DNA from: a virus
Taxonomy: Duplodnaviria; Caudoviricetes
DNA length: 54,940 nt
Virus record (IMG/VR): IMGVR_UViG_3300020452_000389
Coordinates: 1 to 54,940 of that record
Direction: 5' to 3' (one strand)
The notes under the pieces are model-generated. The model did no database searches and was not told the DNA's origin. It saw only the letters and a program-made list of their open reading frames with translations. A program made the position numbers and the translations under genes. This document shows positions 40,568 through 54,940 of this stretch, one piece after another. Each line of letters opens with the position of its first letter. Positions within the stretch are counted from its first letter, which is position 1.

Positions 40568-40784
40568 CTGTTTCAAACTTTTTTTCTGGTTTGTTTTTTT
40601 CTTCTAATGTTTTTATTTTTTCTACAAGCTTTTTCCATTTGGTTTTTCCTATATACAGTTGGAAGGCTGTTAGAGTTCCTTCAGATAAACCCGCATTTAT
40701 TTGAACCTCATTAATTAAAGCTTGTACAACTTTAGTTAACGACTCTATTTTTTTTTCCATTAAAATTAATTTATTTTCTTTCAT
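40557..40784 (-). CDS. Hypothetical protein
   Basis: 75-aa ORF overlapping both neighbours. Confidence 0.7.
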   Translation of the reverse strand: MKENKLILMEKKIESLTKVVQALINEVQINAGLSEGTLTAFQLYIGKTKWKKLVEKIKTLEEKNKPEKKFETDVE

Positions 40785-41334
40785 ATTTATAAAACATTAC
40801 TATTACTATTCTTTGATCTTTGTATTCATTAGGATATTTGCTATGAAAATAATTACACGGGTATGATAATAACCTATTACCCTTATAACCTATAATAGAA
40901 TTTAATTTCCATTTACTTTTATCATTAGCATCTTCTTTTAGCATACGGTTAAACTCTTTTGTGTTAGACTCTATGTAAGTATGCCCATAATTTTCGTGTT
41001 CCCAAAAAGCTGTTCCGTGTAATTTATCCTCATTAGCTTTAAGAAATAAAACCACCGCTCTATCTGGTTGTTGTCCTTCTATTATAGTATCATTATGTAT
41101 ACGCCATGTGTTGTCTTGATTCTCTTTAGCTTCTCTTGCAAAACATAATATATTTTTAATTTTTTTACCTTCAATTTTTTGTAATGACTTTTCTATATAG
41201 TTTACAAATGTGACAGGTAGTTCTTTGATCCAAAAAGATTTACCAGGTGTTTTAACTTCTTTAAATTCATCACAGTATTTTAATACTTCTTTATATAATG
41301 CATCAGGTAAAAAATTATCTTTTATATATATCAT
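40771..41334 (-). CDS. 2OG-Fe(II) oxygenase superfamily protein
   Basis: IHND (HxD), AVVLFL, GTAFW, NRLLSY...FHS, C-terminal RIVIVMF. Confidence 0.75.
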   Translation of the reverse strand: MIYIKDNFLPDALYKEVLKYCDEFKEVKTPGKSFWIKELPVTFVNYIEKSLQKIEGKKIKNILCFAREAKENQDNTWRIHNDTIIEGQQPDRAVVLFLKANEDKLHGTAFWEHENYGHTYIESNTKEFNRMLKEDANDKSKWKLNSIIGYKGNRLLSYPCNYFHSKYPNEYKDQRIVIVMFYKYERK

Positions 41335-41576
41335 GATATTAAATGTTTGATCCAAGCAAATAAACCGTTTATATTTAATGCTACTAAATTCCATTGTTTA
41401 CGCGCTGCTGTTTGTACCATTACGCAAATAAACCCTGCAATATATAATTTAGGTTCTATAGTCCATTGCGCTGCAACTAAAAAGCCAGCACCCATATAAC
41501 CAATACGAGTGGACATTTTTTCAACAGGTGTTAACCTTTTAGTTGTTGCAATTATTTTTAGTAACTTTCTATTCAT
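41331..41576 (-). CDS. Small three-TM membrane protein
   Basis: Three short hydrophobic segments; QWNLVALN. Confidence 0.65.
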   Translation of the reverse strand: MNRKLLKIIATTKRLTPVEKMSTRIGYMGAGFLVAAQWTIEPKLYIAGFICVMVQTAARKQWNLVALNINGLFAWIKHLIS

Positions 41577-42562
41577 TACCACACATCTTCAAAGTCTTCA
41601 CCCTCATTAGCTTTACTATAATCAGTCGGCCTAATTGCAAAAAAATCTGTATGGGTATGACCACCGGTAAGATGATCAAACCAAGACATATTTTCAATAC
41701 ATTTGGTGTCGTAGAACGTGAAGTCCCATTGCTTATACTTTTTAGTTGTGTAACCCAGCTCCGCAAGCTTGTCACCAACTCTTTTCTTGATAAAATGTTT
41801 AAGATCATATTGTGTTATACCTTCTATATCGCCCATCTCAAATATCTTACTAATGTAAGTCATTTCAGCATTGTGCATTGTTAAGGCTGCTTCAAATATA
41901 TGAGGTTCACATTCGGCTTTTAATCCCGGTATTTGTGAACACATATGTCTAAATAGTTGGCAACCCATCTTACTATGTAGACTTTCATCTCTTACAGACC
42001 ATTTCATCTGTTGCCCGATACCCTTAAGTAAATTACGCATTTGAAAAGAATAAAGGACTGCAAAAGCGGAATATAGAGAAACTCCTTCTGCGAAAGCAGA
42101 AAAAGTAGCCAATGACTTTCCGATACCCACGGGATCATTGCCATCATATGCAACGAGATTGTCAAAACGAGCAGCCGTAGCTGGTTCATGTAAAAATGCT
42201 TCGTAATCTTCGAGTCCAAGTGTTTCATTTAAATAACTATAAGCTACAGCGTGTATTGTTTCTTGTGAGCCGAACATCATAGCCATTTGCTGTATCTCAT
42301 GTTTAGGAAACCATGATACGACTTTCTGTGTCCAATAATCAGACACTGCACATTCTGTTTGTGCAAAACCTAATAATATATTACCTACTAAGTTTTTTTC
42401 TTCTGGAGTTAATTTTTCATTCCAGTCTTTTACATCACCACTCATTGGTATTTCAGTATGCAACCAAAATGCTTGGGCTTGTTTTAACCAACCTTCTGTA
42501 TAATACTCAGGGTATTCAAAAGGCTTATAAGGTATTCTTTCTGTAAATAATGGTATTGCCAT
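41576..42562 (-). CDS. nrdB: Ribonucleotide reductase class I beta subunit
   Basis: QTECAV, QETIHAVAY, AEGVSLYSAF, RDESLH. Confidence 0.95.
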   Translation of the reverse strand: MAIPLFTERIPYKPFEYPEYYTEGWLKQAQAFWLHTEIPMSGDVKDWNEKLTPEEKNLVGNILLGFAQTECAVSDYWTQKVVSWFPKHEIQQMAMMFGSQETIHAVAYSYLNETLGLEDYEAFLHEPATAARFDNLVAYDGNDPVGIGKSLATFSAFAEGVSLYSAFAVLYSFQMRNLLKGIGQQMKWSVRDESLHSKMGCQLFRHMCSQIPGLKAECEPHIFEAALTMHNAEMTYISKIFEMGDIEGITQYDLKHFIKKRVGDKLAELGYTTKKYKQWDFTFYDTKCIENMSWFDHLTGGHTHTDFFAIRPTDYSKANEGEDFEDVW

Positions 42563-42563
42563 A

Positions 42564-42725
42564 TTAATAATATATTTCTAAAGCTATATCTACAAAAGGT
42601 AAATATAACACGTGAGTTGTTTGATTTTTTTCTTCATAAGTTCTTATTCCGATTAAAATACCAGGATAAAAACCAATTGACAAAGTCCAGTTATCCTTTA
42701 CCTTGCCCTCTGTATTTTTTGACAT
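42564..42725 (-). CDS. Small hypothetical protein (53 aa)
   Basis: MSKNTEGKVKDNWTLSIGFYPGILIGIRTY...LYLPFVDIALEIYY*. Confidence 0.7.
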   Translation of the reverse strand: MSKNTEGKVKDNWTLSIGFYPGILIGIRTYEEKNQTTHVLYLPFVDIALEIYY

Positions 42726-42828
42726 AATATTTACTTGATTTTAAATTAGATGATTTACACTTAGAGTGTCTACCAGGTCTTTTTTTTCTAGGTTTTAGCC
42801 TATAAGTTGATAATACTATTCTAGCCAT
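42691..42828 (-). CDS. Small very basic protein ending KKYRGQG (45 aa)
   Basis: MARIVLSTYRLKPRKKRPGRHSKCKSSNLKSSKYYVKKYRGQGKG*. Confidence 0.7.
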   Translation of the reverse strand: MARIVLSTYRLKPRKKRPGRHSKCKSSNLKSSKYYVKKYRGQGKG

Positions 42829-42994
42829 AGCATTTTATATTATATTGTTTTTGTAACCGGCTTATATCTTTAAACTTTACATAACCCTTTTTACTTATTG
42901 ACCACTTGACAAACTTATCTATTTGTCTTTCGCCATATTTTATTCTAGCTATTCTTTTATTTTCTTTAAAATTAGCTCTACGGTTTTGTCGCAT
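42821..42994 (-). CDS. Small basic hypothetical protein (57 aa)
   Basis: MRQNRRANFKENKRIARIKYGERQIDKFVKW...*; fills the gap. Confidence 0.55.
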   Translation of the reverse strand: MRQNRRANFKENKRIARIKYGERQIDKFVKWSISKKGYVKFKDISRLQKQYNIKCYG

Positions 42995-43401
42995 TCTTTT
43001 TGATTTTGAGGTTTATAAAGTGTAAATGGCTCTATTTTGTTTTCAGCTACTAGTTTCTTAAACATTTTCCATCTCAATGGAAAAGATTCATTAGCTCTAC
43101 CTTTTGTTTCAATAATAAAACCTTTGCCTACAAAATCAGGGGTATATTTAATATTAAGTATTTTTTTGTTACCTCTGTTTTTATAATCTCCTTTATTATT
43201 ACCACAACGTTCATATGATTCAAACGGAAAATTAAAACCCTCTATTAGTTCAAATGTTTCCCCTTCATATAATGCTTTAATTTTTGCTTTTTTCAAAGCA
43301 ATGTACATATATTTTTCAAGTCCTGACGCAAATATAATACCGTCGTGTTCTATTTTTTTACTACGTACAGGACCTCGTTTTTTAGAGTATCTCTTCTTCA
43401 T
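42949..43401 (-). CDS. Endonuclease I-like resolvase (T7 gp3 type)
   Basis: FASGLE, YTPDF, IIETKG. Confidence 0.85.
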   Translation of the reverse strand: MKKRYSKKRGPVRSKKIEHDGIIFASGLEKYMYIALKKAKIKALYEGETFELIEGFNFPFESYERCGNNKGDYKNRGNKKILNIKYTPDFVGKGFIIETKGRANESFPLRWKMFKKLVAENKIEPFTLYKPQNQKECDKTVELILKKIKE

Positions 43402-43669
43402 GTACTTCTATATTATCTACTTGATTTTCATATTGATTTAACAAACATTCTTCAACTTCATCTTGTAAACATCTTTTTGCTGCTTCAATATATAATAATG
43501 CGTCCATTAATTCTTCTTGCACGTCAACTAAAAATCTATTTAGATCTTTCTTTTCATTTTTAATTTCTTGCATCATTGTAGCGCCATACTTTTTTTGGCC
43601 CATTAAACTACGCTCATCCATCTTTCTTAAGACAGCTTGAACTACTTTATCTTCTGTTTTAATTCTCAT
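43382..43669 (-). CDS. Small all-alpha protein, possible nucleotide pyrophosphohydrolase
   Basis: RSLMGQKKYG...QEELMDALLY. Confidence 0.5.
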   Translation of the reverse strand: MRIKTEDKVVQAVLRKMDERSLMGQKKYGATMMQEIKNEKKDLNRFLVDVQEELMDALLYIEAAKRCLQDEVEECLLNQYENQVDNIEVHEEEIL

Positions 43670-44435
43670 CTTTAATAAATGTTCCGTTAATCATTTTTCC
43701 TTTTCTTTCACATATTTCAATATATGCTGATTCAATACAATCTTCAATAAATAAACCTTCAAGATATGCAAGATTTGTTAATACAACAATCATATCACCA
43801 ATACCATCTACTATTTCTGGTCTGTCGTTTTTTAATAAAGCTTTTGCTAATTCACCAGCCTCTTCTTGAAGCTTAACATATTGCGTGTGGCTATTACCAC
43901 CTTCATATATACCTCTTACAGCAGCCCAGTTTCTGATTAAATCAAATTGAGGATTTTTTGGTGCAATAGGTCTTAGATCAGGATTATGTTTTGGATTAAA
44001 ATAAGCTTCGTAAAAAGCTTTATTGTAAATATAACATCTTTCTTTGTTATACATAGAAGTTTTAACATTAGCTAATATCCAAGAGGTATTATCTTCTTTT
44101 ATTTCTAATTGGCCAAACTCAGGGTGTGACCAAGTAAGTCCTATATTATCTAATAATAAAGGAGCTAAATTTTCTACACTACAAGGGAACGTAGTGGTTT
44201 GATCTGTTACGTTAATTTTCATTTTATTAAATAAATTTTTATATAATTTTCTATCTTTCTTGTAGCCATAAGACTGTTGAAGTTCTATTTCGCGATCTGA
44301 TATATAATCTATATCTTCCGATTGCTCAAGAACTTCGTATTCATTCTCCTTATAACCTTGTATAAGGGTTACCCTGTTATTAAGATCACGTGTTACACCG
44401 ATCTTTTTACCTGGTATATGGTATAAATAATACAT
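43659..44435 (-). CDS. Fusion of a GIY-YIG-like N-terminal domain and a MazG-like NTP pyrophosphohydrolase
   Basis: YYLYH..KKIGVT..L..R...E; C-terminal KLQEEAGELA...DGIGD. Confidence 0.75.
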   Translation of the reverse strand: MYYLYHIPGKKIGVTRDLNNRVTLIQGYKENEYEVLEQSEDIDYISDREIELQQSYGYKKDRKLYKNLFNKMKINVTDQTTTFPCSVENLAPLLLDNIGLTWSHPEFGQLEIKEDNTSWILANVKTSMYNKERCYIYNKAFYEAYFNPKHNPDLRPIAPKNPQFDLIRNWAAVRGIYEGGNSHTQYVKLQEEAGELAKALLKNDRPEIVDGIGDMIVVLTNLAYLEGLFIEDCIESAYIEICERKGKMINGTFIKDEN

Positions 44436-44438
44436 AAT

Positions 44439-45083
44439 TTAAATTTTATTGTTATATAAATGCATGTTGTGTGCATAATGATAATAATTTCCGATTTCAA
44501 TATTTAATCTATCTGCAATCATTTGTTGTAACATTGAAAATTGATATTGATCATTACAAAAACCGTACCAGAGATCATTAGAACGCATCAGAACAGCCAT
44601 ATTAAGCCTATGGTTTAGTATTGTAAATTGAATCGCATATGTACAGGGTGTATCTTTTCTGTACAATTGATGTTCTTTACAATCATAAATAGAAATAGCC
44701 GCGTGTCTAGTGTCTTTTTCTCTTCTAAGCTTTGCAACAACATAATCAATTTGATTTTCTCTTTGCCATTGCCAACCATAGTTAGACATTACATTACCAT
44801 CGCTGTTAGCCATCTTTACCCATATAGGTGGTATACTACCATATAGTTGGCCTAACTTTCTAATATTTCTGTCACCAGATAAATACCACTGCCATTCAGC
44901 AGCGGCGTACGCGAGTTTCCATTGTCTTTCTTTATTTAATATATAATTTTGCATTGGATTTTCTAATGTAAAACCAATATTAAATAAAGCTTTTGTGTCG
45001 CCAAATGGAATACCATCTTGAATAATCTTATCTAAAAAGTATTCATATGCTTCGTTAGCGTTTTTAAACTTTGTTTTTGTCAT
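44439..45083 (-). CDS. Thymidylate-synthase-fold enzyme, probable dCMP (hydroxy)methylase
   Basis: PCT instead of PCH; RSNDLWYGFCND with Asp at the ThyA Asn177 position; NMHLY. Confidence 0.75.
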   Translation of the reverse strand: MTKTKFKNANEAYEYFLDKIIQDGIPFGDTKALFNIGFTLENPMQNYILNKERQWKLAYAAAEWQWYLSGDRNIRKLGQLYGSIPPIWVKMANSDGNVMSNYGWQWQRENQIDYVVAKLRREKDTRHAAISIYDCKEHQLYRKDTPCTYAIQFTILNHRLNMAVLMRSNDLWYGFCNDQYQFSMLQQMIADRLNIEIGNYYHYAHNMHLYNNKI

Positions 45084-45327
45084 AATAAAATCTATATAAT
45101 TCGAATATCTTATTGTTCAACTCTCTACCGTTGTAAGTTTTAGGTGATCTACGTTTGACCCCATTAACTTCTACGTCTATCCACCAATGAAAATTATCTC
45201 TATCATTTGATGCTGCAAATGGACCTATTTTAATTCCATTGTTTACACACCAGTTATAAGCAATTCTATCTTCATCAGTCCATTGTGGTGGAACTATTTT
45301 ACTTTTACGTTTTCTAGCTGGAGGCAT
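45064..45327 (-). CDS. Hypothetical protein
   Basis: 87-aa coupled ORF. Confidence 0.7.
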   Translation of the reverse strand: MPPARKRKSKIVPPQWTDEDRIAYNWCVNNGIKIGPFAASNDRDNFHWWIDVEVNGVKRRSPKTYNGRELNNKIFELYRFYYDKNKV

Positions 45328-47057
45328 TATTCCCAGGGCATTGCCTCTTCATTACCTATAGTTGGTAATTCATGAGGTATAAAACATCCTGATCTATGCT
45401 CCCATTTAAAATGTGCTTCAGCTCCATTTTCCCCTAAATTCTGAAACTTAACTTTTAAAACTTTTGCTTTAACAGTTTTAGCTTCATAATCTCTGTGAAC
45501 TAGTATACCGTGATAACTAGCATCATACCATTCACCACCACCTTTAATGTTGTACATAGTTGGTTCTTCAATTTTACCATTACTATCTTTATACATTTTA
45601 GTTGGGTGTGCAACAATAAATACTAAGACATCAAACTTTTTAGCAAACGTTTCAATTTTAGTTAGATACTCCATTGTATACCTATTTACATCTTCAGTTT
45701 TGCAATCTACGTCTCTAATCTTATTAAATGGATCAATAACAAGGCATTTAATACCTTTACGCTTAACTAACTCCGCACCTTTACGTAAAACAGATTCTAA
45801 TGTATATCTTTCCATATCAATAAAATAAAAATTATCATTAACATGTTGCGATACTTGTTTCCATTTACTTCCACCAATATCTGATCTGGTTGGCATATCT
45901 TGCCATACTTTTCTCATTAACTTATGAGCATGTAAATATGTTGGTGCGTTTTCAGGAGATGCAAATGCAGTTTTCCAGCCATAATTGTTATTATAGCCAA
46001 CACACATTTGATCTACAAAATCTGATTTGCCAGATGAAGGAATACCAGTAACTGTAATAAACTGACCAGTATATGTACTGAATATCCTATCAAAATTACT
46101 AAGACCAACTTGAAAACCAGGTTTGAATCCATGTTTAACAAAGTCTGTAACTTCGTCTTCCACGTCTTTAAACGTTGTGACATTTTCCAATGGCACCGGT
46201 CTAGCATTTTTGATTTTTTCTGATAGTTTTTCTTTTCCATATTTTATTAAATAATCATTAGCGTCTTTACATTCTTCAAAGCTAGCTAAGAAGCAAACTT
46301 CTGCTCCTAACCTTCTAACTAATTCATTCTGTAAAGCTATACCAGCTTCATCATTGTCGACAGCTAATATTATTTTTTCTTTATCTGTAAAATAATCTAT
46401 ACAATTATCTAAATAATCTAAGTTATTATGAGTGATTGTAGCTCCATTAGGAACAGATACGACATTTGTTATACCAGCTTCATGTAAAGCTAACACATCC
46501 ATTTCACCCTCTGTTATAATGCAATTGTCATATCCTACAATACTATTAATATTATAGAACACTTTTTCAGCACCTTTATATAATTTAAAGTTTTTACGAC
46601 CATCTCTATATTTAACATTAATAAGCTGATCGCCCATAAAGTATTGAAACTTTATAGTATTCTCGGTCTTGCCGGTTTGAGGCATCCACTCAGAGCCTTG
46701 TCCAACCTTTAGGTCGAATAAGGTCTCTGGTGATATTCCTCTAGTTTCAAACCATTTCAATATCTTATCTTCTAATCCATAAGCTTTGCCTGGATATTCA
46801 GGATCTGGTTGATCAGGTCTAACATAGACCCTTTCACTAGCTCCTTTACGTTGATAAGTATGTAGTTGAAAAGACGTGTTACAATTATGACATGTACCGA
46901 GACCACGTTCCCAATCATATGAAGCACATTTTTTCTTGTGATTCTTGGGTTGTCTGCATGTGGTAGAATTAGGACAAACTCCTTGGTTCTTACCAGCTTC
47001 TAGACCGTGTTGATTGAACTTGTCAATCACAAATCCATTGATCTCTGTTGTCTGCAT
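45327..47057 (-). CDS. DNA primase-helicase (T7 gp4/Twinkle type)
   Basis: Zn finger, TOPRIM EGEMD and DNDEAG, Walker A GIPSSGKS. Confidence 0.93.
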   Translation of the reverse strand: MQTTEINGFVIDKFNQHGLEAGKNQGVCPNSTTCRQPKNHKKKCASYDWERGLGTCHNCNTSFQLHTYQRKGASERVYVRPDQPDPEYPGKAYGLEDKILKWFETRGISPETLFDLKVGQGSEWMPQTGKTENTIKFQYFMGDQLINVKYRDGRKNFKLYKGAEKVFYNINSIVGYDNCIITEGEMDVLALHEAGITNVVSVPNGATITHNNLDYLDNCIDYFTDKEKIILAVDNDEAGIALQNELVRRLGAEVCFLASFEECKDANDYLIKYGKEKLSEKIKNARPVPLENVTTFKDVEDEVTDFVKHGFKPGFQVGLSNFDRIFSTYTGQFITVTGIPSSGKSDFVDQMCVGYNNNYGWKTAFASPENAPTYLHAHKLMRKVWQDMPTRSDIGGSKWKQVSQHVNDNFYFIDMERYTLESVLRKGAELVKRKGIKCLVIDPFNKIRDVDCKTEDVNRYTMEYLTKIETFAKKFDVLVFIVAHPTKMYKDSNGKIEEPTMYNIKGGGEWYDASYHGILVHRDYEAKTVKAKVLKVKFQNLGENGAEAHFKWEHRSGCFIPHELPTIGNEEAMPWE

Positions 47058-47067
47058 TTAATTTAAT

Positions 47068-47397
47068 TTAAAATGGTAAATCGTCTTCCGCTTGTACTGC
47101 TGCAGGAGCCGGACTCATACGCCCTGTACTCTGTGCTGGCTGGTCTTGTCTAGGAGTAACATTAACGTTATCTCCATTTGTCCACACTACTTTTACATTA
47201 CCAAGATAAGTTTTTTCAACTTTAGCATCTCTTTCCTCTTTCGTTTGTTGAACGACTACAGGACCTTGATTACCAAACTGATCAAGCTCATCATTTAACG
47301 TAATAGTAATTGGTAAGTATTTCCCTTTTTTACCATCGATAATTTTATCTTTAGGTATTTTAGTAAGATCAATACTTGTAGCTATTATACTTGCCAT
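47068..47397 (-). CDS. Single-stranded DNA-binding protein
   Basis: GKKGKYL core and acidic DDLPF tail. Confidence 0.75.
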   Translation of the reverse strand: MASIIATSIDLTKIPKDKIIDGKKGKYLPITITLNDELDQFGNQGPVVVQQTKEERDAKVEKTYLGNVKVVWTNGDNVNVTPRQDQPAQSTGRMSPAPAAVQAEDDLPF

Positions 47398-47398
47398 A

Positions 47399-47575
47399 TT
47401 AATAATTATTTATTTGGTGAAACATTCTTTGTAACTGATCCTTTGTAGCACCAGTTGTTCTTCGTAGATTATCTACGGCTTTAACATGGTTTTGATTAGT
47501 ATAAAAATTATTTACATTAGTTTCTAAACCTGTTACTGTACAAACTCTTGTTTGATTTTTTCTTGTTCTTGCCAT
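47399..47575 (-). CDS. Small hypothetical protein (58 aa)
   Basis: MARTRKNQTRVCTVTG...; start reassigned to follow the upstream stop. Confidence 0.65.
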   Translation of the reverse strand: MARTRKNQTRVCTVTGLETNVNNFYTNQNHVKAVDNLRRTTGATKDQLQRMFHQINNY

Positions 47576-47579
47576 ATAA

Positions 47580-48311
47580 TTAAAGTGTTTTGTTAATAAA
47601 ATATTGGGTAGGATCAAAGCCTTCAGACTTATAAAATAATTCATAAGCCTTCGCTGCTCTTTCAACTTTGTCCATACCACGTTCATAAAACTCGGGTGAG
47701 CAGTCAAATATACCTATTTGTTCTGTATTTTTATCAATGGCAATAAATACCATTTCGTAGCCAAATAGTTTACTATAAATATAAGCTTGTGAATCGTAAT
47801 TGTACTTAGATGCTGAGTATTTAAATTTTTGAAGATCTGCTGTGGTTTTTAAATCAACTACTAATTTTTCTTCATGATTTATAATATCAGCTTTACCTTT
47901 CCATAATTGATTCGCAAGCTTTGTAATCGCTGGTTTTTCGTATTCATTAGTCTTATTACGAATTAAATCAAAGCAAATTTTATTAGATAACATTGTTTCT
48001 GTTAATTTTTCTATTTTATCTACTTCATGCTGTAATAAGCATAATTCACCACCAGACATCTCTTTATAAGCTTTAGTATTTCTAGTTGTAGATTCTATAA
48101 CCTTAAATTTTTTAATTTTATCCGGTTCAAGAATAGCTGTGTGAAAATAACCACCAACTAAAAATGCAGGTCTTTGTTCAGACTGTTTACCTAAAGCTAA
48201 AGGATTGTTAAGTAACGTGCCAATGTCAGAATTACTAAGATATTGTTTACCAAAGTCTCCGTAATAATGTTTATCGTCTCGTAACTTTTCAATTACTTTT
48301 TCGTTTGTCAT
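47580..48311 (-). CDS. PD-(D/E)XK exonuclease (RecE/ExoVIII-like)
   Basis: LSNS, G..FHTAILEP, KGKAD, DLKTT, Y..QAYIY. Confidence 0.85.
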   Translation of the reverse strand: MTNEKVIEKLRDDKHYYGDFGKQYLSNSDIGTLLNNPLALGKQSEQRPAFLVGGYFHTAILEPDKIKKFKVIESTTRNTKAYKEMSGGELCLLQHEVDKIEKLTETMLSNKICFDLIRNKTNEYEKPAITKLANQLWKGKADIINHEEKLVVDLKTTADLQKFKYSASKYNYDSQAYIYSKLFGYEMVFIAIDKNTEQIGIFDCSPEFYERGMDKVERAAKAYELFYKSEGFDPTQYFINKTL

Positions 48312-48820
48312 TATAATGTTTTAAGTTCCTTTTCTAATTCAGGTGTTACTTGGTATTTCTTTTTAATTGTTTCAATTTTACCGCCAGATTTTACAAAAGC
48401 TTTAGCTTTATTTATAGCTGTTTTATCCATAGCTATACCGTTTAAAGCATCGCTATCTGCAGTATCATCAATTAAAAATAAATTTCCTAATGCGTACTTC
48501 TTACCATAACTCGATGCAGTACCGAATTGCTGGGGTGTTTGCATGCCTTTTTGATTAAGATCTACACCAACTATTGCTGTGGCATTTAACGTTTGTTCTC
48601 CGTCCGTTATTGTTGCTGTAGTCTCTAATATAGGCATGGGATCTGAAGCTAATAATTTTTCATTAATAACTACTGATACTCCTAATTCTAATAAATAGGG
48701 TTTTGTTGCTTCGAGAATGTCTTCGGCTGATCTGAAGTAATATTTGCCGAATGAGTTAAACCTACTTTTTTTCGATTTAAACTTTGTCTGGATCGTTGCC
48801 AGTTTAGTGTTTATTGTCAT
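48311..48820 (-). CDS. ERF-family single-strand annealing protein
   Basis: YYFRSAEDIL, QQFGTASSYGKKYALGNLFLIDD. Confidence 0.88.
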   Translation of the reverse strand: MTINTKLATIQTKFKSKKSRFNSFGKYYFRSAEDILEATKPYLLELGVSVVINEKLLASDPMPILETTATITDGEQTLNATAIVGVDLNQKGMQTPQQFGTASSYGKKYALGNLFLIDDTADSDALNGIAMDKTAINKAKAFVKSGGKIETIKKKYQVTPELEKELKTL

Positions 48821-48841
48821 ATGGTATATTGGTTTTTCTTA

Positions 48842-48854
48842 TTAATATAATTAC
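48842..48854 (-). promoter_or_regulatory. Putative phage promoter motif (copy 4)
   Basis: GTAATTATATTAA on the - strand between the sigma gene and ERF. Confidence 0.45.
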
Positions 48855-48883
48855 ACATAATTTTTAGTTTTTACAAAGGTAAA

Positions 48884-49648
48884 CTACAGATAGTCAAGCA
48901 CTTGCGAGTGGTCCACACTATCTATTAATTTATCTACTGCTTGTTTTTTTAGCTCTGAAACACGAACATAATTGCTAACTCCATCTATATTTAATTTTGT
49001 TGCTATTTCTTTAGCTGAATGTTTTTCACAGTCTAATCCGTAACTTAACCTTAATACTTCATATTCTTTTTCATTTAAATATTTAGTCATTAAACCTTTT
49101 AAATAAATATTAAGAAGTTGTATATTATATGGTTCAGATTTATCAGGTATTTGGAACATAATGTTTTCTCCATCACTATTTACTGGTTGTGAATCAATAG
49201 ATAAAAATATACTATTAAAAAACATAGCAACCATTTTCTGATCTTTACCATTATCTTTACGCATCTCATTGAGCTTGTGTTCTGGTATTCTTATATCTCC
49301 TCTTGCAGCATCAATTTTTCTACGTAAATGACCTTTGATTCTTTTACTAAAAAAAGATTTTAGGGTTTTTTCTATATCTTCACTTTCTTTTAATGTATCT
49401 CTATCTAATTTAGCAATAGCTCTAGTCAATGCTTCACCTCCAATTTGTATAAAATCATTTATAGTTAATACACCAGAAGCTTGCTGTGATGTTGAGAATT
49501 TTCTAGCTAAATTTTCTACTAAAGGTAAGAATAAAACTTTAAATTCTTCATCTGTATAATCAATCCATTTTTTATGAGGAATTAATTTTAAAGATTCTTT
49601 TAAATCTTCTTTATACCTAATGTAATTTTGTATATTATATTTCTTCAT
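48884..49648 (-). CDS. Phage sigma-70-family RNA polymerase sigma factor
   Basis: LVENLARKF, DFIQIG, IRIPEH; region 4 LNEKEYEVLRLSYGL...KEIA...RVSELK. Confidence 0.88.
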   Translation of the reverse strand: MKKYNIQNYIRYKEDLKESLKLIPHKKWIDYTDEEFKVLFLPLVENLARKFSTSQQASGVLTINDFIQIGGEALTRAIAKLDRDTLKESEDIEKTLKSFFSKRIKGHLRRKIDAARGDIRIPEHKLNEMRKDNGKDQKMVAMFFNSIFLSIDSQPVNSDGENIMFQIPDKSEPYNIQLLNIYLKGLMTKYLNEKEYEVLRLSYGLDCEKHSAKEIATKLNIDGVSNYVRVSELKKQAVDKLIDSVDHSQVLDYL

Positions 49649-50258
49649 TTAATATTTGTTTTTCGTTTTTAAGCTGTTGGCTTAATTTTCTATAAATAGT
49701 TCTTGTAGAACAATTAAGTAATCCTGCTACTCTGCTCCATGTTATTTTTTTATTCATATCATTTAAATCAAGCATGCATTGATATATAGCCTCTTCATCA
49801 ACCATCGATGATCTACCTATTAATTGACCTACAATTTTTAACTTACTACTCAAGTCTAACCCAGAGTACGGTTTAAATATTACTTTACGTAGCTTGTTAG
49901 CAGGTGGATCACCACCTTGACTATATACATCTATAATCATTTGATCGAGTATTTTTTCTTTAATAAAAAAAGTTACAAAGCCATTATCTTTGTTGGCTAT
50001 AAATCTAGCTACATGCTCAAAGAAAGGACTTAGTCCATACTCATTATCTTGATTTAAATAGTATAATACAAGCATGTGCCACTTTAATGATTTGTATGTA
50101 GTTATTTTAGCCTTGCTATTAAACAAGTGATAACAACCATGCGTACCATTCTCATAAAACTTATATTGGTCTGTTTCTATAGTAGGGATATCATTGCCAT
50201 CAAATCGATATATAACCCTTCTATCGTTCAACCATTTTATATTCCTAGCATGTGACAT
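49635..50258 (-). CDS. DNA-binding protein with C-terminal HTH
   Basis: ITWSRVAGLLNCSTRTIYR. Confidence 0.7.
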   Translation of the reverse strand: MSHARNIKWLNDRRVIYRFDGNDIPTIETDQYKFYENGTHGCYHLFNSKAKITTYKSLKWHMLVLYYLNQDNEYGLSPFFEHVARFIANKDNGFVTFFIKEKILDQMIIDVYSQGGDPPANKLRKVIFKPYSGLDLSSKLKIVGQLIGRSSMVDEEAIYQCMLDLNDMNKKITWSRVAGLLNCSTRTIYRKLSQQLKNEKQILNEEI

Positions 50259-50265
50259 TTGCCTA

Positions 50266-50385
50266 TTACTTTCTTTTATTCTTAAACCTATTGTCACGTC
50301 TAGGCTTTTGAAAAGCCTTTATTTTGTCTGTAATGCCAAAAACATTTGTTTTTATTAAATGTTTTAAATTAGTTATTGTGCTCAT
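50266..50385 (-). CDS. Small basic hypothetical protein (39 aa)
   Basis: MSTITNLKHLIKTNVFGITDKIKAFQKPRRDNRFKNKRK*. Confidence 0.5.
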   Translation of the reverse strand: MSTITNLKHLIKTNVFGITDKIKAFQKPRRDNRFKNKRK

Positions 50386-50716
50386 ATAATTCAATTTTTA
50401 CGTTATTCCATTTTCCATACTTCATAGTTGTGTCAACTAAAAAGTCTATTCTATTTGTCCATCGTTTATTCATACGATCTCTTATGACCCAAAGGCCATT
50501 CATTTCGCCAGCATTGCTAATTAAAACAACGCTATTCATTTTAAAACCTTTAGCTTCAAGATCTCGAGACACAGCTATTATTCTGTGTGACTCGGGATTA
50601 TCCATGTTAATTTTAAAATTAGTAGCAGTTCTATCAGGCGTACTATCAGTTTGAGCTGGAGTTGCATGATATATTGTAGCGGTTACTACAATAATCTTCA
50701 ATGTTTTTAATATCAT
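50369..50716 (-). CDS. 3D-domain (MltA-like) protein
   Basis: VTATIY, IIAVSRDL, VIRDRM, RIDFL. Confidence 0.75.
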   Translation of the reverse strand: MILKTLKIIVVTATIYHATPAQTDSTPDRTATNFKINMDNPESHRIIAVSRDLEAKGFKMNSVVLISNAGEMNGLWVIRDRMNKRWTNRIDFLVDTTMKYGKWNNVKIELYEHNN

Positions 50717-51182
50717 ATAGTTTTTCTTTTTTAATATTACATATAGAGCTTTTGTCACCAATATAGTATTGCCAATAGGCTCTTAAACTATCGCCTTCAA
50801 CTTTATATTCATCAGGCATACACTGTGGAGGTTGTGTGAACTCTTTACCCTGTATATACAGCGGAGGTTTAGCCAGAAAGTCTTTACATTTAGTTATTGT
50901 TAAATGTGTTTTATCGTATCGCTTTGTATACTCATCACCAAGAGCTATCATGTGATCGTATAACCACATGTAAGTAGATCTTGATTTTCTAGCCCATACA
51001 GTTGATGGGTGATTTAAATGAGCCTGTTTATAAGGTACATTTTTCCTCTGCCATTTATCACCATAACAATGATGAGATGTACAAAGCATCTGGGCTGATT
51101 CTAAGATCATTTTAACAACATGCTTATTATATTGTAGCTTTGCTGCTTTAACAGGATCCTCGTGTAAATAAAATATATTCAT
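50646..51182 (-). CDS. Pyrimidine-dimer DNA glycosylase family protein (DenV-like)
   Basis: MNIFYL...KHVVKMILESAQML...HLNHPSTVW...PPQCMPDEYK. Confidence 0.8.
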   Translation of the reverse strand: MNIFYLHEDPVKAAKLQYNKHVVKMILESAQMLCTSHHCYGDKWQRKNVPYKQAHLNHPSTVWARKSRSTYMWLYDHMIALGDEYTKRYDKTHLTITKCKDFLAKPPLYIQGKEFTQPPQCMPDEYKVEGDSLRAYWQYYIGDKSSICNIKKEKLYDIKNIEDYCSNRYNISCNSSSN

Positions 51183-51289
51183 TTATATCTTTTATTGTCT
51201 AATCTATTATAATGTTTGTCTAATAAGAGGTTTGCCACCTCTTCTGATATTAAGTTGTCGTTGTATAGTTGCCATATTAATTTACTCAT
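51179..51289 (-). CDS. Small hypothetical protein (36 aa)
   Basis: MSKLIWQLYNDNLISEEVANLLLDKHYNRLDNKRYK*; overlaps both neighbours. Confidence 0.6.
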   Translation of the reverse strand: MSKLIWQLYNDNLISEEVANLLLDKHYNRLDNKRYK

Positions 51290-52121
51290 AATTTCTAATG
51301 CATTTAAATAGCGGGTGTCTGTAACTACCCGCGTTAGTTCTTTGAAAGTACGTAAACGTAGCTCTTTTACCTATATAGTTATCTATATTTTTAAGCATAT
51401 TAGCCATATCTTTATAAGTAAATCCTTTACCAGGAGGACAGCCGAATTGTATACCTTCGTCATCTAACATTATAAATTTACCAAGTGTACCTGTTCGTTT
51501 ACCTTGACCTAATTCATAGTTAATAATAGTAGCCTCAGCATCAGAGAAGTCTTTAAACTTCATAAGATCATAAGATCTACCGTGTTTGTATAAACCATCA
51601 AGCCTAATGATGGAACCTTCATAACCTTGATCTAAAAATTCTGCGTGTATTTCTCTAGCATAATTATAGCTATCAACTAACTTTGAAGGTACATACTTAA
51701 TTTGAGCGTCATATATGTCAGACGTTACAAGTTGTTGCATACGAGTTTTGTAGCTGTCATACATAACACCGTCAAAATAATCGTATACGTGAAACTGTAC
51801 AAGATGTTGAGCATCTAATCTATCAATATCAGTTGGCTTTTGTTTTCTAACAAGAGATATAATTTTTTCAAAATTATGTTTAAGCTTGTGATTATATAAT
51901 TCACCGTCAAGTATAACGTCAGGTTGTTGATTGAAAAAAGGTTTAAGAGCCATTTCAATATGTTTCACATTCATAAATTGTTTATGATTACGTGAATATG
52001 CGCCGTTTGAGGTAAATAAACATCTAACACCATCAAGTTTTGGTTGTATATATACGGGTTGATCCCAGTCTACTCTAGACTTATTAAACTTGTGTGCAAG
52101 CATTGCTTTTTTAATTGTCAT
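51282..52121 (-). CDS. ATP-dependent DNA ligase
   Basis: QPKLDGVR, LDGELY, VYD, YEGSIIR, LMKFK. Confidence 0.95.
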   Translation of the reverse strand: MTIKKAMLAHKFNKSRVDWDQPVYIQPKLDGVRCLFTSNGAYSRNHKQFMNVKHIEMALKPFFNQQPDVILDGELYNHKLKHNFEKIISLVRKQKPTDIDRLDAQHLVQFHVYDYFDGVMYDSYKTRMQQLVTSDIYDAQIKYVPSKLVDSYNYAREIHAEFLDQGYEGSIIRLDGLYKHGRSYDLMKFKDFSDAEATIINYELGQGKRTGTLGKFIMLDDEGIQFGCPPGKGFTYKDMANMLKNIDNYIGKRATFTYFQRTNAGSYRHPLFKCIRNYE

Positions 52122-52356
52122 CTAATTTTTTTTCTATTCTTTTAATTTTATTTAATATTATCGCTGCTTTACGATATTCCTCTTTACTTTCTAACATAGC
52201 TAGAATAGTATTTAATCTAGCTAATTCAGAAATTAAGATTTCTTCTTCGTTTGCTAACAAAGTTAGGGGACTAATGTCCCCGTATTTTTCCAATATTTTT
52301 GCTAACACTAAGTCTGCTAACAAATCAATATTGTGTTCGTTATTTATATTATCCAA
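52111..52356 (-). CDS. Hypothetical protein with a UVR-like C-terminal helix pair
   Basis: EEYRKAAIILNKI. Confidence 0.6.
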   Translation of the reverse strand: MDNINNEHNIDLLADLVLAKILEKYGDISPLTLLANEEEILISELARLNTILAMLESKEEYRKAAIILNKIKRIEKKLDDN

Positions 52357-52368
52357 TTGTTTTTGTAT

Positions 52369-52854
52369 TTAATTTGTATTTTTAGGAGAATCAGAAGCAT
52401 AAATATGAACTTGTTTATCATTTCTAGTTTCACCATTAGCAAAATCTGTATAATCCATATCCTCCATATACTTAGATATAATCTTTTCTGGTTTTAATAC
52501 AAATACATTTCTATTACTGTACTGATCCCAACAACTAATCCATATGTCAGGTTTACCTGTCCATATAACATAAGTATAATGGTGATCTATATGTTGATGG
52601 TCTTGATATAAGTAGCAACTGTCATAGTAATGATCGTGTACTAGCTTTGCAGCTAATGCACTACCATCTTGTCTACCATTAGTGTGACACCAGTTTGCTA
52701 ACTGTACACCCTGCCATTCAGGATAACCATCGTGATGTAAATACATATTTACATAGCTTTTGTCACTGAAATGACAAGGATCTGCAGCAAATCCTAGCTC
52801 GTTTTCTTCTGCATGTTTTCGGTCTACGACCATTGTTAAATTTCTAGTACTCAT
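52369..52854 (-). CDS. Phage early protein with YxHxDGYP motif
   Basis: MYLHHDGYPEWQGVQL. Confidence 0.75.
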   Translation of the reverse strand: MSTRNLTMVVDRKHAEENELGFAADPCHFSDKSYVNMYLHHDGYPEWQGVQLANWCHTNGRQDGSALAAKLVHDHYYDSCYLYQDHQHIDHHYTYVIWTGKPDIWISCWDQYSNRNVFVLKPEKIISKYMEDMDYTDFANGETRNDKQVHIYASDSPKNTN

Positions 52855-52966
52855 CTTTATATTTTTTGTATTCTTCTTTAGTTATCCACTTATCTATTTC
52901 AGAGACGAAAACCATTTCGCCTCTAAATATTAAGCCATTAAAATTTCCTGGTTTTAAAAATTCCAT
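52844..52966 (-). CDS. Small hypothetical protein (40 aa)
   Basis: MEFLKPGNFNGLIFRGEMVFVSEIDKWITKEEYKKYKDEY*. Confidence 0.55.
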   Translation of the reverse strand: MEFLKPGNFNGLIFRGEMVFVSEIDKWITKEEYKKYKDEY

Positions 52967-52967
52967 A

Positions 52968-53426
52968 TTATTCTTCGTATATATAACCGTTACTTTCTAA
53001 TTCATCAACTTTGTCATCATGTAGCCCATCATAAACATCGTGATACCATTCTGCTAATTCACAGTCTAAATCATCTTCAATTTCATCCCATATATGTTCA
53101 GCAACCCAAACATCTTGGTTGTTAACTAAAGTATCTAGTATTCTTTCAGCAAACTCATTACCATCAGCGTAGTAATATATATCACTAGCAAAATCTCTAA
53201 CGCCGTCATGTTCATGTGTACATGCATATACATCATAAGTATCTGCAGTTGTTTCAGTATATACCAGTAAGCCTTCAGCACCTTGTGCCCAGCTACTCGT
53301 GTTATCTAAGTTACCACCGTAGTTAGCGGTAATATATTCAAGAATCCAGTTCATATCTGGTTCTTGCATTATGCCGTCAGCTTCTAATTTTTCTGCGACG
53401 TCATCATAATTAATTATTTCACTCAT
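52968..53426 (-). CDS. Highly acidic early protein (paralog of 53997-54449)
   Basis: Start reassigned to MSEIINY because the longer ORF runs through the tRNA; very D/E-rich. Confidence 0.8.
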   Translation of the reverse strand: MSEIINYDDVAEKLEADGIMQEPDMNWILEYITANYGGNLDNTSSWAQGAEGLLVYTETTADTYDVYACTHEHDGVRDFASDIYYYADGNEFAERILDTLVNNQDVWVAEHIWDEIEDDLDCELAEWYHDVYDGLHDDKVDELESNGYIYEE

Positions 53427-53446
53427 TGTATTTAATTTAAAATTAG

Positions 53447-53519
53447 AGCGAAAAGTGGGACTCGAACCCACAACATTCACCTTGGAAGGGTGATGCTCTA
53501 CCAATTGAGCTATTTTCGC
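53447..53519 (-). tRNA. tRNA-Gly (anticodon UCC)
   Basis: GCGAAAA/TTTTCGC acceptor stem, GCTC/GAGC D stem, TCACC-CTTCCAA-GGTGA anticodon arm, GTGGG-TTCGAGT-CCCAC T arm, U73; CCA not encoded. Confidence 0.95.
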
Positions 53520-53522
53520 ATT

Positions 53523-53617
53523 AGAGGAGATGCCCCGATTTCCGGTTGGATTCAAAAGGGTTTGTACTCAGGACCTTTCTACTGTTACCGGTTTTCGGGA
53601 ACGACTTACACTCCTCT
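53523..53617 (-). ncRNA. Unnamed 95-nt structured RNA abutting the tRNA-Gly 5' end
   Basis: Five nested helices; G-U pairs only on the - strand; AGUA/GAA internal loop. Confidence 0.7.
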
Positions 53618-53874
53618 TAGTCTAATAAGACCATATAAGCTTCAGAGTTGTTTGTTCTGAACCAACTTAAAGCTTTATCAAAGTCATTAATCATTTTTTG
53701 GTTATATTTTCCTGTTTCAAAAATAGATTGACACCCAATTATGAAATCATAAATACTTAATTCTTCTGCGGTCAACTCGTGGCTTTCGCCAGAAAAAGGA
53801 TTAGTTACTTCTCCACCGCTTGTGTATAAGCTTCCTTTAAACCATTTAGGTAATTTTTGTTTAGATTTTAACAT
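53617..53874 (-). CDS. Hypothetical phage protein
   Basis: VTNPFSG...ELSIYD...WFRTNNSEAYMVLLD. Confidence 0.75.
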   Translation of the reverse strand: MLKSKQKLPKWFKGSLYTSGGEVTNPFSGESHELTAEELSIYDFIIGCQSIFETGKYNQKMINDFDKALSWFRTNNSEAYMVLLD

Positions 53875-54007
53875 TTTTATTTATTATGAGTGGAGACTCA
53901 TCTTTATTTGTTTTAATATAATAGACCGAATCTCCTTCTTCTATTATAATATTTTTGTTTTTAAACCTTTTAGGGTAATTTTTTAACACATATTCTTTAA
54001 TCTTCAT
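53861..54007 (-). CDS. Small hypothetical protein (48 aa)
   Basis: MKIKEYVLKNYPKRF...KDESPLIINKNVKI*. Confidence 0.55.
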   Translation of the reverse strand: MKIKEYVLKNYPKRFKNKNIIIEEGDSVYYIKTNKDESPLIINKNVKI

Positions 54008-54449
54008 AGCTATATCCTTCTTCTATTAATCCTTTTATTATTTCTTCTTCTTTTAAATTAGATAAATCTATATAAAGATCTTCAATAGCGTCATTAACAT
54101 AGTAATCGCTTTGATCTTCAATTCTTATTGTATAGCCACTGGTTATTGCATCTTTTAGACATTGTGTTAATTCACAGTCATAATAATGAATATCACTACC
54201 TACACAGATATTTTGATCATCTTCAGTAGCAATATAAACACTGTAACCATCCGCTGTAGACTCTTCATATATAAAATAGTCACAACTAATTGTACCAAGT
54301 GTAGAATGAGGATCTATTAATTTAGCGTTATAGTATTCTAAAACTACATTTTGCATATGAAATTCATCGTGTGCTAAATCTTCATTAAACTCTGTTTTGT
54401 TTAATAATTCCTCTACTAATTCAGGTGTTATTAATTTTTTAATTCTCAT
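53997..54449 (-). CDS. Highly acidic early protein (paralog of 52968-53426)
   Basis: YEESTADGYSVY...SDIHYY; ends LIEEGYSYED. Confidence 0.8.
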   Translation of the reverse strand: MRIKKLITPELVEELLNKTEFNEDLAHDEFHMQNVVLEYYNAKLIDPHSTLGTISCDYFIYEESTADGYSVYIATEDDQNICVGSDIHYYDCELTQCLKDAITSGYTIRIEDQSDYYVNDAIEDLYIDLSNLKEEEIIKGLIEEGYSYED

Positions 54450-54454
54450 AATTA

Positions 54455-54691
54455 TTACTTTATTAAAAATTTACTACCGCCATACATTATATCACTAGCG
54501 GATATTTCATGAGTATATAAACTTGCATATGTCATTAAAGAGCTAATTTCACTTATTGTTAACTCATGCCACATTGTGCTACTCATTAATTTATATTTTA
54601 ATCTTTTAGCACTATCATATTGTCTAGCGCTAGCTTGCAACTCTGATTTAATAGGTTCAACAAGTCTTTGGTAAATTGATTTTAATTTCAT
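54455..54691 (-). CDS. Hypothetical protein
   Basis: 78-aa ORF. Confidence 0.7.
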   Translation of the reverse strand: MKLKSIYQRLVEPIKSELQASARQYDSAKRLKYKLMSSTMWHELTISEISSLMTYASLYTHEISASDIMYGGSKFLIK

Positions 54692-54733
54692 ATTATTATT
54701 ATCTTATTATTATTGTATTTTGTTTGTAATTAG

Positions 54734-54811
54734 TGGAAGTGGGCGGAGTCGAACCGCCGTTTACTAGACGACCACATATTTGTGGGTATTAGTACTTACC
54801 TTATCACTCCC
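54734..54811 (-). ncRNA. Minimal tmRNA-like RNA (tRNA-like domain only, Ala identity)
   Basis: GGGAGTG/CACTTCC-A with G3-U70, stemless D loop, 3-nt AAC linker, GGCGG-TTCGACT-CCGCC T arm, no anticodon loop. Confidence 0.75.
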
Positions 54812-54829
54812 ATAAGATAGCAGTCGCGG

Positions 54830-54936
54830 ACTGGTAGTTAACTAGTATTGTCATTTATCCGCTCTTTCTGTTTTGCTAAAGTTATAGCTGCTTATATAAG
54901 CTTTTTCCGCCTTACCCTTTAACTAACGTGACCAGT
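54830..54936 (-). ncRNA. Probable structured RNA, possibly truncated at the window edge
   Basis: ACTGG/CCAGT and TAGTTAA/TTAACTA close a domain containing two small hairpins. Confidence 0.4.
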
Positions 54937-54940
54937 AGGC

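Follow-up and report, generated by a model that had tools for sequence, protein, structure and literature searches.

Putative message-less tmRNA genes, reduced to the tRNA-like domain, in marine phages related to those of Flavobacteriia

The window analysed here is the whole of IMG/VR virus record IMGVR_UViG_3300020452_000389, a stretch of 54,940 nucleotides from a virus of the Caudoviricetes. Its terminase matches 87 phage records, which apart from a single uncultured one belong to phages of Flavobacterium, Cellulophaga, Tenacibaculum or Maribacter (86 records), and its primase-helicase is closest to that of Cellulophaga phage phi10:1. Near-identical DNA recurs in marine metagenomes from several studies. 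The plus strand encodes a GroEL-type chaperonin at 177–1739 (PHROG E = 1.4e-136) and a 3156-residue protein at 27116–36586, whose sole family match is a weak polynucleotide-kinase-like stretch. A block of minus-strand genes, replication genes included, extends over 38846–54691, and a tRNA-Gly (UCC) gene is located at 53446–53519 on the same strand (found by ARAGORN, and by the Rfam tRNA model at 76.5 bits). At the head of this block, about 1.2 kb upstream of the tRNA gene, lies the subject of this report, a candidate coding-sequence-less (CDS-less) tmRNA gene of 78 nt at 54734–54811 (minus strand), which has the parts of a tmRNA tRNA-like domain (TLD) only.

The acceptor stem of the element has 7 bp, in which the 5′ strand GGGAGUG (54805–54811) pairs with the 3′ strand CACUUCC (54735–54741). 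It includes a G3-U70 pair, with G3 at 54809 and U70 at 54737. The 5′ strand is followed by a 10-nt stemless analogue of the D loop, AUAAGGUAAG (54795–54804), which contains a GG doublet, is nearly invariant inside the subfamily and resembles the 5′ ends of full-length tmRNAs. An irregular central helix of 33 nt with a 4-nt capping loop (54762–54794) then occupies the site of tmRNA helix 2, and in the predicted fold this single helix replaces both the D and anticodon arms. An AAC linker (54759–54761) stands 5′ of a canonical T arm with a 5-bp stem and the 7-nt loop UUCGACU (54742–54758), and the discriminator, A73, is at 54734. CCA is not encoded. Its position is taken by a CUAA trailer (54730–54733), and CUA follows 103 of 104 distinct members of the family described below. 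The order of the parts is not permuted, and the G+C content of the element is 49%, compared to 32% for the window. All of these parts, read from the letters, agree with those that an earlier sequence-only reading had assigned, and the same architecture is the unconstrained minimum-free-energy fold (−26.4 kcal/mol, z = −3.2), which 2 of 200 shuffles equal.

The CUAA trailer is also found after the window’s tRNA-Gly (53443–53446) and, as read by eye, 3′ of tRNA-Met genes in a few relatives, for example L103. Its presence after both the TLD and tRNAs suggests a shared 3′ processing context.

Standard annotation misses the element. ARAGORN calls neither a tRNA nor a tmRNA at 54734–54811, and finds only the tRNA-Gly over the window; Rfam at gathering score likewise recovers the tRNA-Gly alone. 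The Rfam tmRNA family RF00023 scores the element at 19.8–21.6 bits against a gathering score of 47, and aligns it only as a 5′-truncated match, and the mitochondrial tmRNA family RF02544 is absent from scans at E ≤ 10, in which lower-scoring matches of the same clan are suppressed and one to this family may be masked. Moreover, the shape of the element is by itself weak evidence. A loose descriptor of a T arm plus a 7-bp acceptor has two matches in the window, the element and the tRNA-Gly, and between zero and two per window in 20 shuffled windows. The element is raised above chance by its conservation and covariation in relatives and by an independent covariance model. Two such models were used. 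R1, built from the marine elements, scores the window’s element at 79.8 bits. R2 was built from other subfamilies and the element of phage DS6A, with no sequence from the element’s own subfamily; on both strands of the 54,940-base window its sole match is 54734–54811 on the minus strand, at 43.6 bits (E = 1.3e-7), and it ignores the tRNA-Gly.

Relatives of the element are numerous in IMG/VR. A scan with its 3′ 22-mer finds 21 loci, 18 of which also hold the 5′ half, which was absent from the query. With the 5′ 15-mer, 36 loci are found that contain 25 distinct sequences of 73–177 nt, another 50 matches being due to chance, and a looser 3′ pattern matches at least 119 viral contigs. There are at least 107 distinct elements, 65–243 nt in length, in at least 121 loci, a count from which rows were dropped where an internal partner, GGAAGUG, had been picked in the long members L033 and L041. 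Matches are present in 45 of 47 whole virus records, mostly one per genome; where completeness is 90% or more, 25 of 26 records have one. In many linear contigs, the window included, the distance between the TLD and a contig end is no more than a few kb and often just a few hundred bases, and the TLD of G034 falls inside the terminal overlap; such placement may mean that the genome physically ends there, or that assembly fails at a hypervariable array.

Among characterized phages, blastn of the element and of one relative’s whole RNA array against 50,697 phage records found no family member, and R1 gave weak matches of 20–31 bits and no clear member in five cultured or complete relatives. The cultured Tenacibaculum phage Gundel_1 has a 69-nt anticodon-less tRNA-like element with G3-C70 (NC_062747.1 73061–73129; L236 1501–1569), located after a terminator-like hairpin and before a tRNA cluster, which R1 scores at 31 bits and ARAGORN does not call. 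Very small units with weak R1 matches (27–35 bits) are also seen in L243, L246 and L247 (G031 2045–2119, G030 48209–48278 and G034 60732–60806), and these apparently consist of just a 7-bp acceptor, a short GG loop and a T arm, without a central helix. In the literature searched, elements of this kind are not described for marine phages or for those of Flavobacteriia; the tmRNA database tables of PMC11915505 may list further CDS-less phage forms. Judged from these sequences, the elements form a large, uncatalogued TLD-only family in phages related to those of Flavobacteriia.

Covariation in related phages, which the sequence-only reading had named as a check, is present in both stems. In an alignment of 21 members, pairing is complete (100%) in the acceptor (1:72 to 7:66) and in the T stem. 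The score for covariation, 0.385 compared to 0.128 in shuffles, is reached by none of 500 shuffles and exceeds that of all slid registers. Compensatory changes occur at three of the five T-stem pairs. At pair 4:69 the alignment has AU in 11 members, CG in 6 and GC in 4, while at pair 3:70 it has GU in 19 and AU in 2. The wider family repeats this pattern, with acceptor strands GGGCGUG (63 of the 107 distinct members), GGGAGUG (25), GGGGGUG (11), GGGUGUG (3) and GGGCAUG (1). Position 4 varies among these types, so that pair 4:69 takes all four Watson-Crick forms (C-G, A-U, G-C and U-A). Pair 5:68, by comparison, changes once among the 107, and pair 3:70 is G-U in 103 and A-U in 4.

The pattern scans had fixed either G3 or U70, and a second sample was therefore drawn by way of an unrelated motif in a neighboring RNA. 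This motif occurs in 60 stretches, of which 14 were set aside as chance occurrences in coding DNA and 46 are true. In 37 of the 46, an element lies within 1 kb downstream, with G-U at 3:70 in 34 cases and A-U in 3, and with A73 in all 37. G3-U70, whose lack of conservation the sequence-only reading had named as a refutation, is thus conserved in members found independently of the element. An acceptor helix with G3-U70 and A73 is sufficient for alanyl-tRNA synthetase (AlaRS), and the comparative evidence indicates that the alanine identity pair is under selection.

This constraint is not absolute. In records G030 and G043 an A3-U70 copy (the 65-nt form) is the sole strong match, and the existence of such members means that charging is not always required. 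Loci of this kind include L108 13099–13163, L134 and L021, the last of which carries two minis in tandem (79–158 and 162–257), the first combining A3-U70 with a canonical GAC…GGAC junction. The linker is likewise conserved in part. AAC, for which the sequence-only reading had set the same condition, is kept in 84 of the 107 distinct members, but other subfamilies have GGAA or GGAC. In the window’s subfamily the end of the D loop and the linker read AAG…AAC, compared to GAC…GGAC in the full-length tmRNAs examined alongside. These positions matter for SmpB binding.

The termini of the element also carry information about its origin. Exact matches to the 3′ 22-mer are found in 12 of about 185,579 species genomes (species representatives only). 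Eleven of these, in lineages of the Patescibacteria and Bacteroidales, are full-length tmRNAs with ordinary tags; the remaining match is on a phage-like contig of 903 bp that itself carries a mini, and none is a tRNA. By record title, no Flavobacteriia are among the genomes with exact matches. The 5′ bases of those full-length tmRNAs are nearly identical to the start of the minis, and for every mini subfamily there is a full-length tmRNA whose acceptor stem is identical or almost so, in some cases on another viral contig. In addition, longer minis align end to end with RF00023 at 35–41.5 bits. Together, these matches support descent of the element from tmRNA and not from tRNA. A 244-nt viral tmRNA at L165 2648–2891 (minus strand) has the canonical tag ANKNQFALAA and the acceptor stem of the commonest mini subfamily, and may represent an intermediate or source form.

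Between D loop and linker the element has only the 33-nt helix, and neither an mRNA-like domain nor a resume codon, tag frame or stop was found in it. The identification put forward at the outset, a TLD with the alanine identity pair and no message, is thus supported by ends that match full-length tmRNAs, by the absence of a tag frame and by a model shared with DS6A. Across the loci that hold minis, ARAGORN makes no tmRNA call except for a doubtful one of 186 nt at L159 (tag ERTEVYYIC). This “tag” was rejected as a real message, as it lies in a module shared with a site outside any TLD. A hidden tag frame in long members (GCA…UAA in L012 and L014) was also rejected, as the stretch recurs as a free-standing hairpin outside TLDs.

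One might suppose that the element is a decaying relic, whether a degenerate remnant of a tRNA-Ala or tmRNA, an attP copy of the 3′ end of a host ssrA gene, or a full-length tmRNA cut by the end of the contig. The Rfam alignment is indeed that of a 5′-truncated tmRNA reaching the window end, ARAGORN is silent, and decayed copies are known in the relatives L016 and L059. A tRNA-Ala pseudogene was nonetheless rejected, given the lack of a D stem, anticodon arm and anticodon, and the fact that the 22-mer matches tmRNAs only. Truncation was rejected because a 5′ acceptor strand is present in the element and pairs perfectly, and because the same short form sits mid-contig in complete relatives. The attP objection, which the sequence-only reading had raised against itself, fails on that same 5′ strand, on the lack of any match to the tyrosine integrase family PF00589 in the window, and on the rarity of the 22-mer in bacteria, where it occurs in 12 species genomes and its 11 full-length matches fall outside the likely host group. 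With stems that covary as well, a relic of any of these kinds is extremely improbable.

The most variable part of the family is the central helix. It is completely different between otherwise near-identical phages, with its closing stem retained. Sequences with an AAC linker number 84 of 107, and 66 of these 84 have an anchored closing stem of at least 4 bp, compared to 91 of 1680 shuffles; about 40 different stem sequences are used. A noisier, fold-based measure of anchoring gives 49.5% compared to 6.5% in shuffles, and the direct count is preferred. The nearest relative, L009, has a compensatory change from C-G to U-A in the apical hairpin. Inserts in the helix vary in length between about 13 and 190 nt, with occasional nesting, and 33 of 102 recur outside any TLD in the scaffolds of other phages (at least 22 nt at 85% identity or more). 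The sites of these matches are a further tRNA-like unit and two additional conserved structured RNAs, which precede the TLD in relatives. Modules are shared, for example, between the L043 TLD and L013 769–801 and between the L012 TLD and L023 6154–6194, and some occur as free hairpins. A hypervariable helix with modules common to neighboring structured RNAs appears to be a new feature, undescribed in the literature searched, and the recurrence of the modules in other RNA scaffolds means that the helix may have a function unrelated to trans-translation.

The RNAs that surround the element form an array. The 3′ part of the second conserved structured RNA, termed RNA2, is retained in the window at 54812–54940 (minus strand), where 129 nt are kept and the contig end cuts the rest. 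Its full form is found upstream of the TLD in L026, L006, L018 and L024, ending 4–11 nt before G1 of the TLD. The outer stem and inner hairpin of RNA2 covary between phages, and it carries a variable insert. A third conserved RNA, in which the outer stem covaries, the 5′ and 3′ parts are conserved and a hairpin varies (L013 at about 730–830, L123 1–110, L026 and L102, among other loci), opens the array in relatives and sometimes directly abuts the TLD. The other anticodon-less tRNA-like unit of these arrays (for example L108 12918–13010, L102 4254–4402 and L132 3462–3566) is 93–189 nt long and has a T arm, a 6–7-bp acceptor, discriminator C, a variable hairpin and no G3-U70 rule. ARAGORN makes no call on this unit, and at six loci of the neighboring RNAs Rfam gives no family at E ≤ 0.1. 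It had been proposed that the element belongs to an RNA cassette with its neighbors. In relatives it is indeed a unit of a conserved array of structured RNAs, but the window keeps only part of that array, and no sign of joint function was seen.

Metatranscriptome contigs from four runs of one study cover RNA2 at 54858–54940 with depths of 313–1171, compared to 3–8 on neighboring ORFs; these depths are those of contigs, may sum over related phages and could include DNA in the libraries. The contigs leave 54752–54855 uncovered, and so carry no information on expression of the element. Metatranscriptome libraries usually lose small structured RNAs. One contig, of run X9 (54395–54729), ends 5 nt past the discriminator, which is a weak hint of a processing site.

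These observations raise the possibility that the tRNA-like shape serves mainly for excision, CCA addition and stability, and that the active part is the variable hairpin, drawn from a pool of modules. More broadly, the TLD would be one of several tRNA-like display scaffolds loaded from a shared, recombining hairpin pool, and would bring the hairpin that it carries to SmpB, to stalled ribosomes or to RNase R, or do no more than keep it stable and properly processed. The sharing of a third of the inserts with scaffolds outside TLDs, their range of lengths and occasional nesting, the presence in the same phages of other anticodon-less tRNA-like units and of two conserved RNAs with variable hairpins, and the very high contig depth on the neighboring RNA are all in keeping with this idea. 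A scaffold alone, however, would not need the 3:70 G-U wobble, A73 and a tmRNA-type D loop, all of which are kept across subfamilies. The shortest members (65–79 nt, including that of the window) carry just a plain hairpin, and loops of structured RNAs also simply tolerate insertions. This explanation is considered unlikely; if true, it would make the array a combinatorial RNA-based system for host takeover or anti-defense, and not a plain SmpB sponge.

The TLD is the part of tmRNA to which SmpB binds. The interpretation favored here, to which a probability of roughly 0.55 is assigned, is that the TLD-only tmRNA acts as a decoy for host trans-translation by way of host SmpB. The element would be transcribed on the minus strand at the head of the gene block, excised in the manner of a tRNA and completed by post-transcriptional addition of CCA. 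It could then be charged by the host alanyl-tRNA synthetase through G3-U70 and A73 and bound by host SmpB, the phages apparently encoding none of their own (neither the window nor any of 46 related records has an SmpB gene). As it lacks a reading frame, it would compete with host tmRNA for SmpB and probably for stalled ribosomes, and the tagging of nascent proteins would be blocked or short-circuited. Points against this interpretation are the A3-U70 members, the AAG…AAC junction of the window’s subfamily, the recurrence of helix inserts in other RNA scaffolds, and an Rfam score under the gathering threshold together with the silence of ARAGORN. Processing, charging, SmpB binding and the effect on trans-translation are inferred from the precedents discussed below and from what is established about AlaRS and the TLD.

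A different outcome of the same binding would be ribosome rescue without a tag, in which the nascent chain of a stalled ribosome is transferred to a charged TLD that has entered together with SmpB. Drop-off, peptidyl-tRNA hydrolase or an ArfB-type factor would then free the ribosome, with no degradation tag added. Truncated phage proteins would be spared and ribosomes recycled. Rescue of this kind needs charging and a pure SmpB sponge does not, so the retention of a chargeable G3-U70/A73 acceptor in 103 of 107 members, while the neighboring pair covaries, speaks for it. Peptidyl transfer to a TLD-only tmRNA in vitro is on record (PMC3895274), and CDS-less mitochondrial tmRNAs, for which a role with incomplete mRNAs has been proposed, co-occur with imported SmpB (PMC11915505). 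But an element with neither reading frame nor stop codon needs another factor for release, and the TLD-only molecule tested, as cited in PMC4131195, inhibited tmRNA regardless of whether it could be charged. The A3-U70 members, which are the sole copy in two records, fit a decoy better than tag-less rescue. Rescue is regarded as improbable, but as a live rival in view of the peptidyl transfer seen in vitro.

It is also conceivable that the host factor titrated by this TLD-like RNA is not SmpB but, for example, RNase R or a defense nuclease directed at tRNA. The element offers no anticodon loop to an anticodon nuclease, and fragments of tRNA and tmRNA that bind RNase R are known from the AcrIIIA1 system (PMC11662646). 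However, no particular nuclease is indicated by the data and the conserved features are those recognized by AlaRS and in tmRNA; this proposal is regarded as very unlikely.

Until now, message-less tmRNAs have been known from organelles and from a single cultured phage, DS6A. The present comparison shows that a whole group of abundant marine phages, uncultured relatives of Flavobacteriia phages, commonly carries the TLD-only form and keeps it under selection. Since standard tools miss this family, phage interference with host ribosome rescue, or phage re-use of it, may be far more widespread than annotations suggest. The family also supplies natural variants with which a TLD alone can be tested, including chargeable G3-U70 and non-chargeable A3-U70 forms, four acceptor types and many helix inserts.

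The closest known system is that of phage DS6A. It is listed as “TLD only” by Hudson, Lau and Williams, who cite the DS6A experiment to Mao et al. 2009; as described in that text, the TLD-only molecule tested inhibited tmRNA, whether chargeable or not (PMC4131195). A 2025 tmRNA database paper groups DS6A with CDS-less mitochondrial tmRNAs and two plastid forms (PMC11915505). Inhibition of endogenous tmRNA and binding of SmpB are known for the DS6A-like molecule only (PMC4131195, PMC11915505). Thus, going by these sources, both the kind of molecule and the idea of SmpB titration are already in print for DS6A (PMC4131195, PMC11915505). R1 finds one site in this phage, at JN698994 28478–28557 (37.2 bits), which is 80 nt long, has G3-U70, is unannotated and lies between genes. 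The two elements are alike in their 7-bp acceptor with G3-U70, A73, stemless D loop with GG, single helix, short linker and T arm, as well as in their lack of a tag frame, intergenic position and length (80 nt in DS6A and 78 nt in the marine element). They differ in that DS6A is a single GC-rich case, a temperate actinophage with an integrase, whereas the marine family spans more than 100 AT-rich contigs, with at least four acceptor subfamilies, a hypervariable helix and an RNA-array setting, and is known from sequence alone.

Organellar CDS-less tmRNAs, which occur in jakobid and oomycete mitochondria and in two plastid forms of about 65 bp, resemble the element in consisting of the TLD only, with no tag frame and with SmpB encoded elsewhere (PMC11915505). 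In the account given there, SmpB is imported where the mitochondrial forms occur, and their proposed role is to deal with incomplete mRNAs; unlike the element, their genes are usually circularly permuted, and they are resident components of organelle rescue and not viral (PMC11915505). With regard to activity, a TLD-only tmRNA supports peptidyl transfer in vitro that is blocked by kirromycin, a result for which PMC3895274 cites Shimizu and Ueda 2006.

The element agrees with standard one-piece tmRNA (RF00023) in the sequences of both termini, in G3-U70, A73 and the T arm, and in where helix 2 is placed, and full-length phage tmRNAs with the same or nearly the same acceptor stems are present on viral contigs L015, L165 and L173. 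In contrast to these, the element lacks the mRNA-like domain, resume codon, tag and pseudoknots PK1–PK4, and has about 78 nt compared to about 244–446 nt. tRNA-Ala is similar in its G3-U70 pair, A73 and T arm, and CCA is unencoded in the element as it is in the phage’s own tRNA, but the D stem, anticodon arm and anticodon of tRNA-Ala have no counterpart. Finally, the phage anti-CRISPR AcrIIIA1 is described as working in complex with host tRNA and tmRNA fragments that bind RNase R (PMC11662646). Both cases involve small RNAs, derived from tRNA or tmRNA, that a phage turns, or in the marine family may turn, against host factors; the AcrIIIA1 fragments differ in being cleavage products of host RNA made by a phage protein, and not the product of a phage-encoded gene (PMC11662646).
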